Virus genome (UHGV): UHGV-0248400
DNA length: 59,635 nt
Direction: 5' to 3' (one strand)
Source of the DNA: a virus
A model generated the notes under the pieces. The model made no database searches and was not told the origin of the DNA. It saw only the letters and a list, made by a program, of their open reading frames with translations. A program made the translations under genes and the position numbers. Positions 2,134 through 36,212 of the stretch are shown piece by piece (positions within the stretch are counted from its first letter, which is position 1; every line of letters begins with the position of its first letter).

Positions 2134-4488
2134 ATGAAGGGATTACTGAACCGTAAACAATGGGTTTGCTGGAGGCTGGAGCATATTGAAGGTCGCCCAA
2201 AACCCACGAAAGCACCTTACAGCCCAGTCCACGGGTACAAGGCCAGTACAACAAATCCGGCTGACTGGTCTGACTATCATACTGCGCTGGGTATGGCGCA
2301 AATACATGGTATGTCTGGTGTCGGTTTCGTGTTCACTGAAAACGATCCCTATTTTTTCATTGACGTCGATAACTGTCTGGTAGATCAGGCTACTGCCACG
2401 TGGTCACCACTGGCACACGAATTTGTAAACCGTTTCCCCGGCGCTTACACCGAAGTAAGCCAGTCAGGAACAGGCTTACATATCATCTGTGCGTATAGCA
2501 GTTTACCGGAAGGGTTTAACAGCCTTAACGATCAGAAAACCGGGCTTGAAATGTACTGGCGCGATCGCTTTGTTGCCATGACATTAACCGGGAATGGTGA
2601 AGTTGACGTTGACTATACACAGGGTGTTCACGACTCGATCGCCCGGTATGGGCGCATTCGTTCTGATCGTTCCGCACACTGGACCAGCGCACCCTGTGAT
2701 GAATGGTCAGGCCCAGAAGATGACGAAGAACTGATCGCAATGGCGTTGAAGTCATCCAGTGCGGCTTCAGTTTTTGGCAATAAAGCATCGTTTGCGGATC
2801 TGTGGACGGCAAATGTTGAAAAATTGTCTGTCAGTTATGCGAGCGATCAGGGGAAAGATTATAACGGAAACGCAGCTGATGCGGCCCTGTGTTCACATCT
2901 TGCTTTCTGGACAGGTAAAAACTGTGAACGCATGGAGCGGTTATTTAATAAATCAGCGCTTGTTCGTGGTAAATGGACAGATCGAAAAGATTACCGTGAG
3001 AGAACAATATTAGGTGCAGTTGAACGTTGTGATACCGTTTATCGTGCACAACCAGCGCTGACCCCAGAACTGATTAATGCTGTTACGCCAGCGCCTACAG
3101 TCGCGGTAACGGGTAGTGTTCCGGCGTATATGTCGATCAGACCTGGCGAAGGTGCTTATGGGGCTAACCACACGGTTAACGCATCCACTTTCGTTAATAA
3201 CTATTATCCTAATAACACGCTGGTTTTTGTACAGCAGCAACCGTACCGCTTTAACGGTCGCGTCTGGGAACGTGTGACAGAAGATGAATTAAAACATCAG
3301 TTATCTATGGCAATGCTGGCGAGCGAACCAAAAGCTGATGTTATTAACGGCACCTATAAGGTTTTAAGCTATTTATTCACCCGTGCAGATCGTGAGTTAG
3401 GCACCTGGCCGGGCGTTGATGTTTCACACTATATTGTGTGTCAAAACGGGATACTTGACGTTCACACCAGAAAATGTGAGCCGCATAACCCTGATTTCTT
3501 CACCACCAGTATTTTACCATACAGTTATGACCCTTTCGCACAGGCACCCGTTTTTCAGGATTTTCTGAATACGACGCTGGAAGGCGATCAGGAACGTATT
3601 GCACTGCTGCAGGAATGGCTGGGGTATATGCTGGTTAACTCCTATGACTATCAGAAAGCGATGTTACTGATCGGTGCGCCTCGTTCTGGTAAAGGTACTA
3701 TCGGCCAGATTATTCAGGCGCTGGTAGGTGATGAAGCCTATGCCGGGATTACGCTTGAAGGGCTGGCAAGTGATGCTGTTCTGGAAACTGTGCTTGATAA
3801 ATCCGTGTTATTTATTGGCGATGCTCACAGTGTTTCCGGGCCTGACCGTAACAGGATCCTCGACCGTTTTAAATCGATAACCGGGGCTGATGCGATCCCT
3901 GTTAACCGTAAATATAAAGGTGCGTGGAATGGTCGTTTACCGGGTCGTATGACACTTGCCGCGAACAACATCCCGGCCTTTGCTGATGATTCTGGCGCAA
4001 TGGCAAACCGCTTGCTGATCCTGCCGTTTAACATCTCGTTTCTGGGTCGTGAAGATATCACGCTGAAATCACGGTTAATGAAAGAATTACCGGGGATCTG
4101 CAACTGGGCTATCGAAGGTCTTGAACGGTTGCGTAAAAATAATCGCTTCACTGAACCAACAGCAAGTATTGTTGAGCGTCAGGAAATCATGGATCAGCAG
4201 GCACCGCTGATGGCGTTTGTTCGCGACTGCTGCGAGCTGTTACCTGATAGCGTAACCCACACTGAAGAACTTTTCTGTAGATATAAAATGTGGAAGATGC
4301 AGGAGGGCGGCGCGACGATGACGAAAACCGCTTTCAGCCGGGCGTTTAAAAGTATGTTGCGTGGTCGTGTGGTTAAAGATGTGGTGTCTGTTAACGGTCA
4401 GCGGGCAAACGGTTTCCGAGGAGTGCGTTTACTCCCTTTCCAGCCAGCGGGTAACGTTGTTCCTTTCGCGCCCGCCAGTAATAGTTAA
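2134..4488 (+). CDS. DNA primase / SF3 (P4-alpha, D5-like) replicative helicase
   Basis: 784 aa. The C-terminal half carries Walker A GAPRSGKGT and Walker B VLFIGDAH. The N-terminal half is D5_N/prim-pol like. Typical phage primase-helicase organisation. Confidence 0.8.
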   Translation: MKGLLNRKQWVCWRLEHIEGRPKPTKAPYSPVHGYKASTTNPADWSDYHTALGMAQIHGMSGVGFVFTENDPYFFIDVDNCLVDQATATWSPLAHEFVNRFPGAYTEVSQSGTGLHIICAYSSLPEGFNSLNDQKTGLEMYWRDRFVAMTLTGNGEVDVDYTQGVHDSIARYGRIRSDRSAHWTSAPCDEWSGPEDDEELIAMALKSSSAASVFGNKASFADLWTANVEKLSVSYASDQGKDYNGNAADAALCSHLAFWTGKNCERMERLFNKSALVRGKWTDRKDYRERTILGAVERCDTVYRAQPALTPELINAVTPAPTVAVTGSVPAYMSIRPGEGAYGANHTVNASTFVNNYYPNNTLVFVQQQPYRFNGRVWERVTEDELKHQLSMAMLASEPKADVINGTYKVLSYLFTRADRELGTWPGVDVSHYIVCQNGILDVHTRKCEPHNPDFFTTSILPYSYDPFAQAPVFQDFLNTTLEGDQERIALLQEWLGYMLVNSYDYQKAMLLIGAPRSGKGTIGQIIQALVGDEAYAGITLEGLASDAVLETVLDKSVLFIGDAHSVSGPDRNRILDRFKSITGADAIPVNRKYKGAWNGRLPGRMTLAANNIPAFADDSGAMANRLLILPFNISFLGREDITLKSRLMKELPGICNWAIEGLERLRKNNRFTEPTASIVERQEIMDQQAPLMAFVRDCCELLPDSVTHTEELFCRYKMWKMQEGGATMTKTAFSRAFKSMLRGRVVKDVVSVNGQRANGFRGVRLLPFQPAGNVVPFAPASNS

Positions 4489-32914: not shown

Positions 32915-33934
32915 ATGAGCTATAAACAGAATTTCCGCGACGTTAGCAACCCGGATCTATTCCTGTCTAACTTTTCGGTAGCGTACTGGCAGGATACATC
33001 ACTGTTCGTCGGTACTCGTTACTTCCCGGTTGTTCCGGTAAACCTGGCGGCTGGTAAGTATCTTACCTATCCGAAAGGTTATTTCGGTCGCCCGGTTAAC
33101 TCGAAACGCGCTGAAGATGGTGTTGCCAACACTATCGGCTACAAAACCAAAAGCGAAGGCTATACCGTCGATGACGACGCGATCCGTATTTTTATCTCTG
33201 ATAAAAAACGTGCAAACGTCGCAAACGGTCAGCAGCTGGATATGGAAGCAACAGGCGTTGTTACCGATGCACTGCTGATTAACAAAGAGATCGACTTCGT
33301 TTCTAAGTTCCTGGTGCCGGGTAAATGGGCAACTGACTATCAGGGTGTTGCATCTGGTCCTACTGGTAACCAGTTCCTGAAATGGTCTAATGCCAACTCT
33401 GACCCGATCGGTGATATCCTGTCTCGCCGCGTAGCGTTCTCGCTGGCAACTGGTGGTCGCCGCTGGAACAAGGCGCTGATGACCCTGGACGTTTACGACG
33501 CTCTGACCCGTAACCCGTCTGTGATCGACCGTATCAACGGTGCGTCTACCAGTCAGAATCCGGGTATTGTGACCCAACAAGCGCTGGCCGCTCTACTGGA
33601 AGTCAACGAGATCGAAATTATGCAGTCCGTAGTTAACATGGCTGCTGACGGTCTGGAAACTGCAGAAGGTGACCCGCTTACCGATATGCAGTTTGCAGCT
33701 GAAGGCGTGCTGATGCTGAACTATGTTGAACCGACAGTGGGCAACATGAAGCCTATCGCAGCTGTTACCTTTGCCTGGAATGAATTTGTTGGTCTGGGCA
33801 TTGATAACGGTCCGGCGATCCGTACCTATCCGGGTGTTGAAGGTCGTCGCGGTAACTTTGTTGAAGCAGAGTTTGCGATCGATACCCAGATGGTTGCACC
33901 GGATATGGGTATTCTGTTCTACGACGCTGTTTAA
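32915..33934 (+). CDS. major capsid protein
   Basis: 339 aa. Position after the scaffold. AGGAGCAAA SD. Followed by a long non-coding and terminator region. Confidence 0.65.
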   Translation: MSYKQNFRDVSNPDLFLSNFSVAYWQDTSLFVGTRYFPVVPVNLAAGKYLTYPKGYFGRPVNSKRAEDGVANTIGYKTKSEGYTVDDDAIRIFISDKKRANVANGQQLDMEATGVVTDALLINKEIDFVSKFLVPGKWATDYQGVASGPTGNQFLKWSNANSDPIGDILSRRVAFSLATGGRRWNKALMTLDVYDALTRNPSVIDRINGASTSQNPGIVTQQALAALLEVNEIEIMQSVVNMAADGLETAEGDPLTDMQFAAEGVLMLNYVEPTVGNMKPIAAVTFAWNEFVGLGIDNGPAIRTYPGVEGRRGNFVEAEFAIDTQMVAPDMGILFYDAV

Positions 33935-33996
33935 CAGTCTGCCGTAATCACAAAGGGGTGGCTAACGCTGCCCCTTTTGCTTATGTGAGGTTTATC

Positions 33997-34371
33997 ATGA
34001 AAAAAAATGAATTTGATCCGTCAGCTAAATATCGTTTCACCCGTCCTATGCTCTGGCACGGTAAGTACGTTGCCACGGGTGATGCTGTTCCCGACGATGG
34101 TACACCTGTTGGCATTTTGCGTGCCTTGTTCAAACAGCGGCAGATTGAAGCCGTTGTATCGGTGAGTATTGCGAAAGAACCGGTAACTATTAGTCAGAAA
34201 GATGACAAAATAACTATCAGCGCTGGCCCGGTAGCTGAGATCCGCAGTGAAGGCGCTGGCTTCTATAACGTCTATATGTCCGGCATGCCATTAACCCCGG
34301 CTAAAATTCGCGGTAAGAAAGCCGTTGAAAAATGGTGCGAAGAACAAAAGTTGACTTACAAGTATTCTTGA
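33997..34371 (+). CDS. hypothetical head-associated protein (~124 aa)
   Basis: ATG 33997 with GTGAGG SD. The track begins at 33958. Confidence 0.4.
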   Translation: MKKNEFDPSAKYRFTRPMLWHGKYVATGDAVPDDGTPVGILRALFKQRQIEAVVSVSIAKEPVTISQKDDKITISAGPVAEIRSEGAGFYNVYMSGMPLTPAKIRGKKAVEKWCEEQKLTYKYS

Positions 34372-34766
34372 CGTATTGTTAGTTCAAGGCGACGCTGATT
34401 AGATAGAACTGCATAGCAGACGCTGTTGAAAACCTTAGCCTTTAATCGGTCACCGTGTGTGACGCTGGATAAACGTAACCAGCAACTATCAGGTAAGAGC
34501 GCTGTTAAGTAGCTTCAGGGGACATCCCCGCACAGGTGACGACTTATGCGCAAAAGTAGATGTGGTAAGGCTTAAAGCGCTCTTTCCGATAGTTTTCGTG
34601 GCGACTTTGCGGGTTTTTAGAAACTGACCACAAAGATAAATGCAAACGAAGAAATGTATCTGGCAGTAGCCTAACGGCTAAACACCAGTGAGGTATTCCA
34701 GCTCCTCATCAACGAATCTGGCGCACTGGCCCGGTGTGATTAATAATGGGCACACAACAGGTAAGA

Positions 34767-34831
34767 ACACTGACAGGTGGATGTTCGTAGCGCTGCGTAA
34801 CTTTAGATGGGTTCGAGTCCCATACAGTGTT
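34767..34831 (+). other. tRNA-like remnant (acceptor-like ACACTGA/ACAGTGT, T-arm ATGGG-TTCGAGT-CCCAT, no CCA)
   Basis: A perfect T-arm and a 6/7 acceptor pairing are seen. The D and anticodon arms cannot be folded (about 8 nt too short). Probably a degenerate tRNA. Confidence 0.3.
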
Positions 34832-35144
34832 CTTTCCGTTGTGGTGAATACGTAGGCTGATACGTTAATCAGGTGAACGAGAACCCTGCTTGTCAGAGTG
34901 CGCGGCAGAACCTGTGATGCCCAGGCGGAACAGGGGTGTAAAACGAGGCGTCGCACGAACGCCTATTGTCACTAAGTCGGAGATCAGCACCGGCCACCAC
35001 ACAATAAGCATACGATACCATCGCCTTTCAAGTAGGTATCCGGGTCGGAACACACTACGCCTGATGACGCTGATAGCAGAAACCAAATGGTCGCGTAGTC
35101 TCCCAATGTTCCGATTTAGTCGGGAGAGTGAGAAAGGCATATAC

Positions 35145-35232
35145 GGATAGTTGACTGAGAGGCCGAAAGTGGTCGGTTGCTAACCGATAAACCGGAAACG
35201 GTTCACAGGTTCGAATCCTGTACTATCCGCCA
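35145..35232 (+). tRNA. tRNA-Ser (anticodon GCU), type II with long variable arm, encoded CCA
   Basis: Hand fold: acceptor GGATAGT/ACTATCC, 3-bp D stem ACT/AGT with D-loop GAGAGGCCGAA (GG present), anticodon stem GTCGG/CCGAT with loop TTGCTAA (U33, GCT, A37), variable stem-loop CCGG-AAA-CGG, T-arm ACAGG-TTCGAAT-CCTGT, discriminator G, CCA. Confidence 0.8.
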
Positions 35233-35361
35233 AATACGCGAATCACACCAACAGGAGGTGATCGCTATCTTGCTGGCGGGCAAGCCGCAAAGCGTGGGTA
35301 AAGCACGTTGTGAAACGTTCTGAACTGCGTAAAGAATTAACCCAGAGCCATGCAATTATTC

Positions 35362-35388
35362 GCCGTCTGTTTAAGACGGCTTTTTTTC
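35362..35388 (+). terminator. rho-independent terminator (GCCGTCTGTTTAAGACGGC TTTTTTT)
   Basis: 7-bp GC-rich stem followed by a 7-T run, ending the tRNA / non-coding island. Confidence 0.65.
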
Positions 35389-35427
35389 GTGCTAAAATAA
35401 TGAAAACTATTCTGTACAGGTGACCAC

Positions 35428-35838
35428 ATGGCAATCACAGTTGAAGGTATCCGCAATTTAATTAACGTTCCTGATATCAGTGATGAAACAATTCAGTGGT
35501 ATATCGACAACGGCTATACAAACCCGTTAAGTATCTGCATCGCACTTTGTGATTACATGGCTTCATTGGTCAGTAACGACACTGATATTAAAGTTGGTCC
35601 TATTTCACTTTCTGGTAGTGACGCCGCTAAAGCCTGGAACTTGCTTAAAAAAGATTTTATTTTGCGTTTGAATACCGGGACGGATCCGGGTGGTTCAGGA
35701 TTTGGCTTAGGGTTTGGTGTTGGTGGTATCACATTAACTGGTCAGGGTATGCCACCTGCTATTCAGCGTGGACAGTTTGATAACCCACCGATCACGCTTG
35801 AGAACAACACTACGCGCATCAATGAAGGTGAACAGTAA
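35428..35838 (+). CDS. head-tail connector / head completion protein (putative)
   Basis: 136 aa. First gene after the island, in the order typical of head-tail joining genes. Glycine-rich C-terminus. Confidence 0.4.
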   Translation: MAITVEGIRNLINVPDISDETIQWYIDNGYTNPLSICIALCDYMASLVSNDTDIKVGPISLSGSDAAKAWNLLKKDFILRLNTGTDPGGSGFGLGFGVGGITLTGQGMPPAIQRGQFDNPPITLENNTTRINEGEQ

Positions 35839-36212
35839 TGTCCGATCAACGTAACCGTGTTTTAGCAGGTGTAACCCGTGCACTCGCAGAAGTGGGTGAA
35901 GATCTGACTGTATCACGTACAGTAACCACACCAAACCCCAGCAACCCCACGCTGCCAGGTGTGACAGAAACTACGGTTCACAGTTGCCGTGGTTATGTTT
36001 ACCCACTGGAAAAATGGGATCCGTCAACCATGACGCGCAACACCGTGACAATGGTCATTATGGATACGAAATCTTTTGACCCGCCTTTTGTACCTGAACG
36101 TGGCGATGTGGTAATTGATAACCGTGGGCGTGAATACAGGCTGTTAGACCGTCAAAATCCGCGTTTGCTGGGTGATGATATGGCGTTTATTCATCCTACA
36201 GGCGCTGCATAA
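35838..36212 (+). CDS. head-tail adaptor (putative)
   Basis: ATGTCC overlaps the upstream stop (TAATG). 124 aa. Confidence 0.4.
   Translation: MSDQRNRVLAGVTRALAEVGEDLTVSRTVTTPNPSNPTLPGVTETTVHSCRGYVYPLEKWDPSTMTRNTVTMVIMDTKSFDPPFVPERGDVVIDNRGREYRLLDRQNPRLLGDDMAFIHPTGAA

Follow-up and report, generated by a model that had tools for sequence, protein, structure and literature searches.

The island and its setting

The window analysed here is the virus genome UHGV-0248400 at its full length of 59,635 nucleotides (nt), a Klebsiella siphophage near vB_KpnS-Carvaje, VLCpiS10a and KP13-27, and our subject is a non-coding island at positions 34372-35427, the centre of which (34588-34766) is occupied by an element resembling the template part of transfer-messenger RNA (tmRNA; SsrA). 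PHROG matches place the major head protein gene (32915-33934) and a small conserved gene (phrog_19242, 33958-34371) upstream of the island, and a phrog_21889 gene (35428-35838) and the gene for head closure Hc1 (35838-36212) downstream. Between these flanking genes there is no credible open reading frame (ORF): the longest, of 92, 91 and 86 amino acids, lie on mixed strands, and no PHROG family match was found for the island ORFs or for a 37-amino-acid ORF annotated in a relative. Readings of these ORFs as protein genes were accordingly rejected (0 PHROG matches).

A sequence-only reading of this DNA had already described the island as non-coding, with a real serine transfer RNA (tRNA), structured RNA and a terminator of its own. 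All of this stood: the longest ORF is the one of 92 amino acids, PHROG matches are confined to the flanking genes, relatives hold no intact protein gene here, and ‘structured non-coding RNA’, one option offered at the time, fits the densely structured RNA of the island. The decay scenarios raised alongside it, of tRNA genes, of a protein gene and of a homing element, found no support; relatives have no intact ORF at the island position, and the island shows no sign of a homing element. The tmRNA-like element at 34588-34766 had been overlooked. As a whole, the island is a mosaic cassette of stable-RNA genes.

Structure and tag frame of the tmRNA-like core

The core RNA consists of 34588-34766 plus a closing helix (stem B) that extends to 34843, ~190 nt in all, and shows the layout of the messenger RNA (mRNA)-like domain of tmRNA; its features all lie on the plus strand. 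A 5′ arm, GAUAGUUUUCGU-GG-CGAC (34588-34605), leads into hairpin HP1 (34605-34635; CUUUG...CAAAG with an inner CGG-UUU/AAA-CUG helix), which stands at the place of tmRNA pseudoknot 1 (PK1). Next come the resume context AUAAAU (34636-34641), a tag frame GCA AAC GAA GAA AUG UAU CUG GCA GUA GCC (34642-34671) that specifies ANEEMYLAVA, and the stop codon UAA (34672-34674), which lies in the loop of a helix 5 analogue (34660-34688; outer CUGG/CCAG, inner UAGCC/GGCUA). Downstream are an H-type pseudoknot, PK2 (34689-34721), with stems S1 UGAGG/CCUCA (34689-93:34704-08) and S2 CCAG/CUGG (34698-701:34718-21), and PK3 (34729-34756), a pseudoknot or hairpin with S1 GCCC/GGGC, a candidate S2 UGUG/CACA and the nearly invariant loop GAUUAAUAA; a 26-mer across PK3 recurs exactly in 107 IMG/VR contigs.

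Two long helices frame these elements. Stem B (34753-34843; 5′ strand 34753-34772, 3′ strand 34825-34843) closes the core and is present as a helix of 10-24 base pairs (bp) in nearly every member of the family of related phage elements, in many different, covarying sequences; its tip varies in size, from a loop of 4 nt up to an insert of 170 nt, and in this window carries a tRNA-like module. Stem A (34484-34594, plus strand) is a long imperfect hairpin with the 5′ strand AACUAUC-A-GG-U-AAGAGCGCU (34484-34503) and the 3′ strand AAGCGCUCUUUCCGAUAGUU (34575-34594). It encloses a variable insert that includes GGGGACAUCCCC, is of the same sequence type as stem B with another insert, and also appears in the minimum-free-energy (MFE) fold. 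Phage HK620 keeps stem A with G-U variants and a different insert.

Covariation was assessed for this hand-drawn structure on an alignment of 56 representatives less than 93% identical, with 500 shuffles. Overall, 89% of cells are paired, compared with 30-46% when the partners are slid, and the observed covariation was reached by none of the 500 shuffles. The outer part of helix 5 is 98.6% paired, with three of four pairs changed on both sides, and three of the five inner pairs are changed in the same way. PK2 behaves similarly in S1 (98.6% paired, four of five pairs changed on both sides) and in S2 (95.1%, four of four). In PK3, 92% of S1 is paired and a single pair has changed on both sides, enough to support this stem; its S2 shows one-sided changes only, and HP1 has 84-87% of cells paired with few double-sided changes, such as UUAUG/CAUAA in N4-like phages.

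Exactly ten codons followed by a stop are present in all 92 distinct family sequences, whereas the other two frames vary. The encoded pattern is A-N-[D/E]-x-x-[Y/F/V/M/I]-L-[A/M]-[V/A]-A, in which the final codon always specifies alanine (GCC 48, GCG 24 and GCU 19 times) and leucine is written as CUG or UUG. AUAAAU precedes the resume codon in 86 of the 92 sequences, with A at -4 in 92 and U at -5 in 89; these two positions we take to correspond to the frame-setting U85 and A86 of E. coli tmRNA, known from the mutational literature. Codon for codon, the phage frame aligns with the E. coli ssrA tag ANDENYALAA, in the same length and the same register. By this comparison of sequences, the frame is under selection at the amino-acid level while having neither a start codon nor a ribosome-binding site. 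An out-of-frame AUG within AAAUGC was tried as a start codon and rejected, that frame varying from 4 to 12 codons.

The likeness to bacterial tmRNA (RF00023) thus extends over a GCA resume codon after U(-5) and A(-4), a 10-codon frame beginning A-N-D/E, a tag end that is hydrophobic and then of Ala-type residues, a stop codon in helix 5 and H-type pseudoknots downstream. Unlike tmRNA, however, the phage RNA lacks an acceptor stem, a G3:U70 pair, a T arm in tmRNA topology and CCA; it has a hairpin for PK1, at most two pseudoknots after the tag instead of three, and a core of about 190 nt versus 363, and its 5′ end is complementary to the host tmRNA. We consider it highly probable that the element is a functional tag-template RNA of tmRNA derivation, and it probably descends from tmRNA.

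In FelixO1-like phages, a 5′ end CUUAG (CGUAG in Erwinia phage Panisse) is complementary to the terminal-helix loop CUAAG (CUUACG in Panisse), at ~1462-1468 with ~1640-1655 in locus L117 and at ~1462-1468 with ~1650-1662 in L119; between the two lineages one change looks compensatory, a hint of a ring-closing contact.

Distribution and genomic context

By BLAST, 757 phage records match the island query, mostly over ~34580-34779 and at 70-95% identity. They belong to Ackermannviridae, Felixounavirus and its relatives, T1-like Drexlerviridae and N4-like Schitoviridae, with further matches in P22-like HK620, lambdoid HK633, P1, 7-11-like phages and Erwinia phages. A FelixO1-type query matched 142 records and a phiMAM1-type query 426, some of which may be among the 757. 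Nearly all phage matches lie beneath no annotation or beneath tiny ‘hypothetical proteins’. In E. coli, 820 of 5426 complete genomes, about one in seven, carry a match, at 881 places (731 on plasmids and 150 on chromosomes); the listed matches have no RNA annotation, and the matching plasmids, where listed, are about 90-130 kb, the size of P1-type phage-plasmids.

The element shares its strand with phage tRNA genes and is found within or beside their array, or in a late leader. P1 has it between a dicF-like region and tRNA-Asn; HK620 has it in the late leader between pR′/qut and the terminator tQ, and in HK620 and KP13-27 there is no adjoining tRNA gene. The pR′-to-tQ transcript of HK620 (locus L001, 2740-3447), which corresponds to the short 6S RNA of lambda, would measure about 650 nt and hold stem A, the tmRNA-like core, stem B and module C (described below); HK620 lysogens might make it constitutively. 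In Klebsiella phage K60PH164C1 (L124, 1-1605) a ‘RIIA lysis inhibitor’ pseudo-CDS (coding sequence), probably an annotation artefact, is drawn across three tRNA genes and the tmRNA-like element. The Rfam small RNA (sRNA) STnc100 matches Magnus (L003, 4341-4555) at 52.9 bits (gathering 47), a few hundred bases from tRNA genes and beneath annotated tiny ORFs, and matches P1 partially (L007, 2678-2797; 33.4 bits).

Phages with tmRNA-related genes are known, namely mycobacteriophages (Bxz1, Catera and others) and Bacillus phage G, and their tmRNAs share with the present family the fact of being phage-borne; they are complete molecules or, in mycobacteriophage DS6A, the opposite half (PMC4131195). 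The DS6A RNA consists of the tRNA-like domain only, so half-molecules do exist (PMC4131195). The 2014 tmRNA Website census recorded ssrA in eight mycobacteriophages and in no other viral or plasmid genome project, and named as further phage cases only Bacillus phage G and DS6A (PMC4131195). As it lists no further phage ssrA, the present family was not recognised at that time. We found no published description of the family or of its tag peptides in the open-access literature; a description elsewhere is possible.

Complementarity of the 5′ arm to host tmRNA

UUUUCG stands upstream of the tag in 124 of 124 tag-bearing copies that had not been selected for that motif. The arm of which it is part is complementary, not to the template of the phage itself, but to host tmRNA at nt ~86-106, from the resume codon to codon 6, within a region (nt 79-107) that is single-stranded in tmRNA. 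In this window, UAGUUUUCGU pairs with ACGAAAACUA of E. coli tmRNA (host codons 3-6) and GCGAC pairs with GUCGC across the host resume codon; contiguous pairing reaches 12 pairs in FelixO1-like wV8 and 13 in Panisse.

For 16 of 23 distinct arms, the best duplex site in the 363-nt E. coli tmRNA falls in nt 80-112. The median duplex energy of a 32-nt arm is -28.4 kcal/mol with the host template versus -15.8 with the phage's own, part of the gain coming from the HP1 5′ strand, which is possibly not free. In binding to a fixed host site of 28 nt, ten lineage-specific arms surpass 95-99.9% of 3000 natural 28-nt windows. Among 120 enterobacterial ssrA copies recovered next to prophages, 108 have an identical host site; because the sampled hosts share the target sequence, covariation between arm and target is uninformative across them.

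Where promoters can be recognised, the arm would be near the start of its RNA. In T1-like DP01 and FelixO1-like Michonne, a promoter with a perfect TTGACA ends ~8 nt before the invariant GUUUUCG (TTGACA-17-TAGATT or TAAGAT in T1-like and FelixO1-like phages), so that, given the usual -10 distance, transcription is expected to start ~0-5 nt upstream of that motif.

A proposed mechanism

A degron-like frame with no initiation signals could be read only by a ribosome resuming on it as on tmRNA. Resuming needs an alanyl-tRNA-like domain and SmpB, both absent from this RNA, which points to host tmRNA as the partner; it is the only such partner in the cell that we know of. This need for a tmRNA partner, together with an arm tether at the host resume site, favours docking with replacement of the template. 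In the scheme that we propose, an RNA of ~190 nt would be released from a tRNA-containing transcript, either through a nearby transcription start or through flanking tRNAs or tRNA-like modules cut by tRNA-processing enzymes; the tRNA-like modules would then be processing punctuation that marks the cut sites, a role suggested by their position only. The 5′ arm would anneal to host tmRNA in its single-stranded template region, covering the resume codon and the codons up to the sixth, masking the host tag template and tethering the phage template to the host alanyl-tRNA-like domain and SmpB. Rescued ribosomes would continue translation in the phage frame and append its tag, or host tagging would at least be blocked. 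Taken as a whole, a tmRNA-like tag-template RNA that sits in a stable-RNA cassette and docks on host tmRNA is our best explanation of the island, with a probability of roughly 0.5; the docking and tag-swap mechanism specifically is doubtful enough to be offered only tentatively.

Several observations weigh against this reading. Scores with the Rfam models stay below threshold for tmRNA (11-15 bits, gathering 47), tmRNA_permuted (20-30, gathering 47), alpha_tmRNA (18-25, gathering 50) and beta_tmRNA (13, gathering 84). As a point in favour, these sub-threshold matches are always to tmRNA models and fall at the same spot in nine of nine loci (the window and eight from different phage families), where AUAAAU and the tag frame account for them. 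Outside the tag, on the other hand, no significant likeness to the E. coli ssrA sequence was seen, and homology by profile search was rejected as a line of argument, the tag alone aligning (nhmmer, 1.9 bits). HP1 covaries less than the other helices, and only a nested hairpin can be drawn in place of PK1. The complementarity to host tmRNA was spotted after the fact; single short arms set against the whole 363-nt tmRNA do no better than shuffled arms (p 0.00-0.71), and the arms of the lineages share one 8-mer, so that the lineages are not independent tests. The Salmonella tag is ANDETYALAA with an ACC codon, which would give one mismatch in the duplex; this tag was seen once among the enterobacterial ssrA copies, and Salmonella phages keep the same arm. 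In the MFE fold, part of the arm pairs with the RNA's own first tag codons, and a ‘closed’ form in cis is possible on that model. The RNA ends and RNase P cuts are ones that we infer. Finally, we know of no precedent for a template supplied in trans to tmRNA, and a translating or loading ribosome might simply not use one.

The same complementarity would also serve an antisense decoy, an RNA that anneals to host tmRNA, or sequesters SmpB, S1 or RNase R, and so turns host tagging off, its own frame remaining untranslated and stalled phage proteins escaping destruction. The 5′-terminal position of the arm is typical of an sRNA seed, and location among tRNA genes, which also reduce stalling, suits such a role. 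The 5′-seed antisense sRNAs of enterobacteria, of which the prophage anti-sRNAs AgvB and AsxR are an example, likewise match a single host RNA target through a 5′ end that is conserved and single-stranded; here, however, the proposed target is tmRNA, and the rest of the RNA is a tag template rather than just a terminator hairpin. A tmRNA fragment limited to the domain alone has been reported as a strong tmRNA inhibitor (cited in PMC4131195). For a decoy, though, a short antisense RNA would suffice, and ten sense codons plus a stop in 92 of 92 sequences, a degron-like C-terminus kept with synonymous codons and the -5/-4 bases would be left unexplained. We judge it unlikely, and retain the docking tag template as the preferred reading.

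The tmRNA-SmpB system is close to universal in bacteria and for 30 years has been studied as one molecule, its tRNA and mRNA halves joined. If the present assignment is true, hundreds of phages, including P1, HK620 and the Felix O1 group, bear a half-molecule whose tag frame is under selection and which lacks the tRNA half, and a family that RNA annotation pipelines now leave blank or place under spurious small ORFs is missing from them; a conserved ‘non-coding gap’ in many phage genomes would gain a function, and old observations of phage dependence on host ssrA would be easier to explain. A real family would mean that a template can act in trans or that phages interfere with ribosome rescue by dedicated means. 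Were docking true, enterobacterial phages, prophages and phage-plasmids would bring a surrogate template that acts in trans and reprograms ribosome rescue and protein tagging, with a phage-specified tag replacing that of the host; and trans-docking, if right, would itself be a new mechanism.

The missing tRNA half and the tRNA-like modules

ARAGORN called no tmRNA in the window or in more than 30 related loci, and a manual search for the T arm and acceptor strands of a tmRNA-type tRNA-like domain gave only local hairpins without G3:U70. The minimal units of FelixO1-like phages run from the promoter straight into a normal tRNA-Arg with no T arm between, which leaves no room for an acceptor strand. 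The genome announcement of the FelixO1-like phage Moogle mentions an ARAGORN ssrA call without detail (PMC4319497); run on Moogle, ARAGORN gave us no tmRNA, and the deposited record likewise has no ssrA call.

Candidates for the absent half were tried and rejected. The 5′ strand of stem A can be drawn with the 3′ strand of stem B as a tmRNA-type domain (GCGCUGU/ACAGUGU, with G3:U70 and a fitting T arm). This was ruled out, since the local pairings A5′:A3′ and B5′:B3′ are perfectly complementary and the cross pairings mismatched, and since in some relatives the T-arm module flanks the core on the opposite side or stem A is absent. A permuted tmRNA that uses an upstream tRNA-Ile, as suggested by Infernal alignment of FelixO1-like loci, fell because a promoter lies between the two and other families have no upstream tRNA. 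The mini-tRNA of wV8 (G3:U70, A73, CCA), considered as an alanine acceptor, turned out to be a degenerate form of what in Michonne and phiSUSP1 is a normal tRNA-Arg(UCU). This wV8 counterpart (L006, ~1645-1730) is not called by ARAGORN and scores 31.7 bits with Rfam tRNA (gathering 29); by eye its D arm seems absent, and its acceptor stem has G3:U70, A73 and CCA.

The tRNA-like module at the tip of stem B (34767-34832, plus strand) is built of a closing stem of 8 bp, a ACAGGUGGAU linker, a hairpin with the palindromic loop AGCGCU and a T arm, AUGGG-UUCGAGU-CCCAU, at 34807-34823 (GGGUUCGAGUCCC); a D arm, a G3:U70 pair and CCA are all absent. Neither ARAGORN nor the Rfam tRNA model reports the module, and the mascRNA model gives 16.7 bits (E 2.9). 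Seven sequence variants from other phages show compensatory changes across it. A tRNA-like element with a T arm had been noticed here before, and the conserved T arm and 8-bp closing stem bear that out; the label ‘degenerate tRNA’ does not fit a conserved, covarying module that stands on the other side of the core in close relatives. The module is upstream of the core in VLCpiS10a, KP13-27, locus L034 and SP-076, and a T-arm hairpin sits at the stem B tip in several lineages, including this window.

Its AGCGCU loop (34789-34794) is invariant in all seven variants while the stem below covaries, and also occurs in loci L004, L008, L034, L053, L129 and L130; it could make a loop-loop contact with itself or with an AGCGCU in stem A. 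N4-like phages (EC1-UPM, L120 ~1433-1497; L121 and L124) conserve a tRNA-like minihelix of ~65 nt, which follows the core at a distance of ~400 nt and comprises a 7-bp acceptor stem, a small hairpin, a T arm UCUGG-UUCGAGU-CCAGA and then A-CCA. It is not called by ARAGORN and has C3:G70 instead of G3:U70.

Cutting a non-tRNA RNA out of a longer transcript by means of tRNA-shaped structures or neighbouring tRNAs has parallels. At the 3′ end of MALAT1, mascRNA is a tRNA-like processing module, and the tRNA cluster of T4 holds the stable RNAs species 1 and 2, which resemble the present case also in being stable RNAs of unknown role inside a phage tRNA cluster. The difference is that in the island a processing role is read from position only.

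The modules raise the possibility of a two-piece phage tmRNA, in which the module at 34767-34832 would be charged and serve as acceptor, joined to the coding piece through stem B or other pairing, and in which other phages would use a different T-arm insert or a mini tRNA-like RNA ending in ACCA. As in the two-piece tmRNAs of alpha-proteobacteria, cyanobacteria and some beta-proteobacteria, the coding part is separable from the T-arm part, the best (though weak) Rfam matches are to tmRNA_permuted, and some phages show a permuted gene order, their T-arm module preceding the coding part. T-arm hairpins abut the stem B 3′ strand in several independent lineages, the N4-like phages have their conserved minihelix with ACCA, and there is the ssrA call reported for Moogle (PMC4319497). 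In known two-piece tmRNAs, however, the coding piece provides the 5′ acceptor strand, whereas no shared acceptor stem can be drawn in the phage RNA: no strand at the 5′ end of the core complements the 3′ acceptor strand of the modules. The module has its own closed acceptor stem, with A3:U70 or C3:G70 instead of G3:U70; in this window there is no CCA and the 3′ trailer is base-paired; a T arm is absent from most family members, HK620, DP01 and the minimal units of FelixO1-like phages among them; and ARAGORN finds no tmRNA, even in Moogle. On balance, a two-piece molecule is improbable.

Beyond the core, module C (34840-35001, plus strand) is predicted to form a tRNA-shaped frame: UGUGGUG (34840-46), a hairpin ACGUAGGCUGAUACGU (34850-65), a variable centre, a T-arm-like GUCGG-AGAUCAGCA-CCGGC (34976-94) and then CACCACA (34995-35001). 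Its end blocks are conserved in 30-60 of 115 loci, in some of which the T-arm-like hairpin has the canonical UUCGAYU loop.

tRNA-Ser and the exchange of modules

A complete type II tRNA-Ser(GCU) with an encoded CCA lies at 35145-35232 on the plus strand. The tRNA-finder check proposed in the sequence-only reading upheld it, ARAGORN calling exactly this interval and Rfam tRNA giving 54.3 bits (gathering 29). Per 1000 codons the phage uses 12.6 AGU and 11.4 AGC, which jointly make up 40% of its serine codons, and AGC/AGU supply, one of the purposes then considered, is a sufficient reading for this gene: it is adequately explained as an ordinary phage tRNA that supplies AGY codons. Directly upstream is a structured leader (35002-35144, plus strand). 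This ~140-nt block also precedes tRNA-Ser in T1-like DP01 (L005, ~1905-2051) and is present in Magnus of the Ackermannviridae (L003, ~3010-3150), and it looks as if leader and tRNA-Ser move as one cassette.

Modules are gained and lost even among close relatives. phi_KPN_H2 has the tRNA and no core, KP13-27 has the core and no tRNA, and VLCpiS10a has an extra 66-amino-acid ORF after the tRNA; in the near-identical phages of loci L128, L129 and L130 the module set varies, with the first 73 nt and the last ~190 nt of the island constant. The independent assortment of modules marks the island as a hotspot of RNA cassette exchange.

Such turnover, the linkage to tRNA genes and the tRNA shape of the flanking modules might suggest that the element is a decaying relic of a captured tmRNA and of tRNA genes, or else serves tRNA operons as a passive leader or a scaffold for processing, with tRNA maturation as its function at most. 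A relic, however, would not keep a 10-codon frame and covarying pseudoknots, down to ~70% identity, in at least eight unrelated phage families, and a scaffold does not sit well with an element that also occurs apart from any adjoining tRNA gene, as in HK620 and KP13-27; we think this very unlikely. There is as little to be said for an island that supplies tRNA-Ser(GCU) together with tRNA-like decoys against anticodon-nuclease or other tRNA-targeting defences: the tRNA is real, AGY makes up 40% of serine codons and tRNA-like modules are present, but this would account for only about 90 of 1056 nt, and the widely conserved part is the tag-template RNA, not the tRNA, with KP13-27 keeping the core and no tRNA.

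Other features and the ends of the island

The sequence-only reading had also listed GC hairpins and an orphan Shine-Dalgarno (SD) site. The hairpins are present, at 34517-34528 (GGGGACAUCCCC), 34947-34963 (GGCGU/ACGCC) and 35099-35127 (UCUCCC/GGGAGA), two of them a few bases away from where they had been put. The SD-like site AACAGGAGGTGATC lies exactly at 35250-35263, as described, with a 17-codon TTG ORF behind it. It belongs to a block (35236-35323, plus strand) in which GGAGGUGAUC (35254-35263), a 10-nt anti-16S match, is part of a hairpin and the TTG ORF spans 35270-35323. In the MFE fold, the SD-like bases pair with an upstream AAUCAC (hairpin 35241-35267), and on this model the site may form one side of a hairpin that follows the tRNA and not be a ribosome-binding site. 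Close relatives match the block at 99-100% identity, a level at which conservation is uninformative as to whether the 17-codon ORF is coding.

At the upstream end, 34372-34444 (the first 73 nt) is 97-100% identical in four of four close relatives, including one that has no core. A weak promoter-like site, TTGACT-17-TATTGT (34351-34379, plus strand), found by a consensus scan, spans the stop codon of the upstream gene and could be the start of an island transcript, which may alternatively be read-through from the head genes; the number of promoter-like sites of this kind is not above that in shuffles. At the downstream end, the intrinsic terminator reported earlier was confirmed as GCCGUCUGUUUAAGACGGC followed by a U run (35362-35388, plus strand), with a 7-bp stem at 35362-35380. 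Overlapping it, a second promoter-like site, TTAAGA-16-TAAAAT (35371-35398), faces the head-closure genes.

The Rfam models GOLLD and ROOL gave no match at E up to 10. Positions 35302-35464 have a weak likeness to the Salmonella Hfq-binding sRNA STnc560 (18 bits, gathering 55; E 0.38), centred on CCAUGCAA, the terminator hairpin and the U run.

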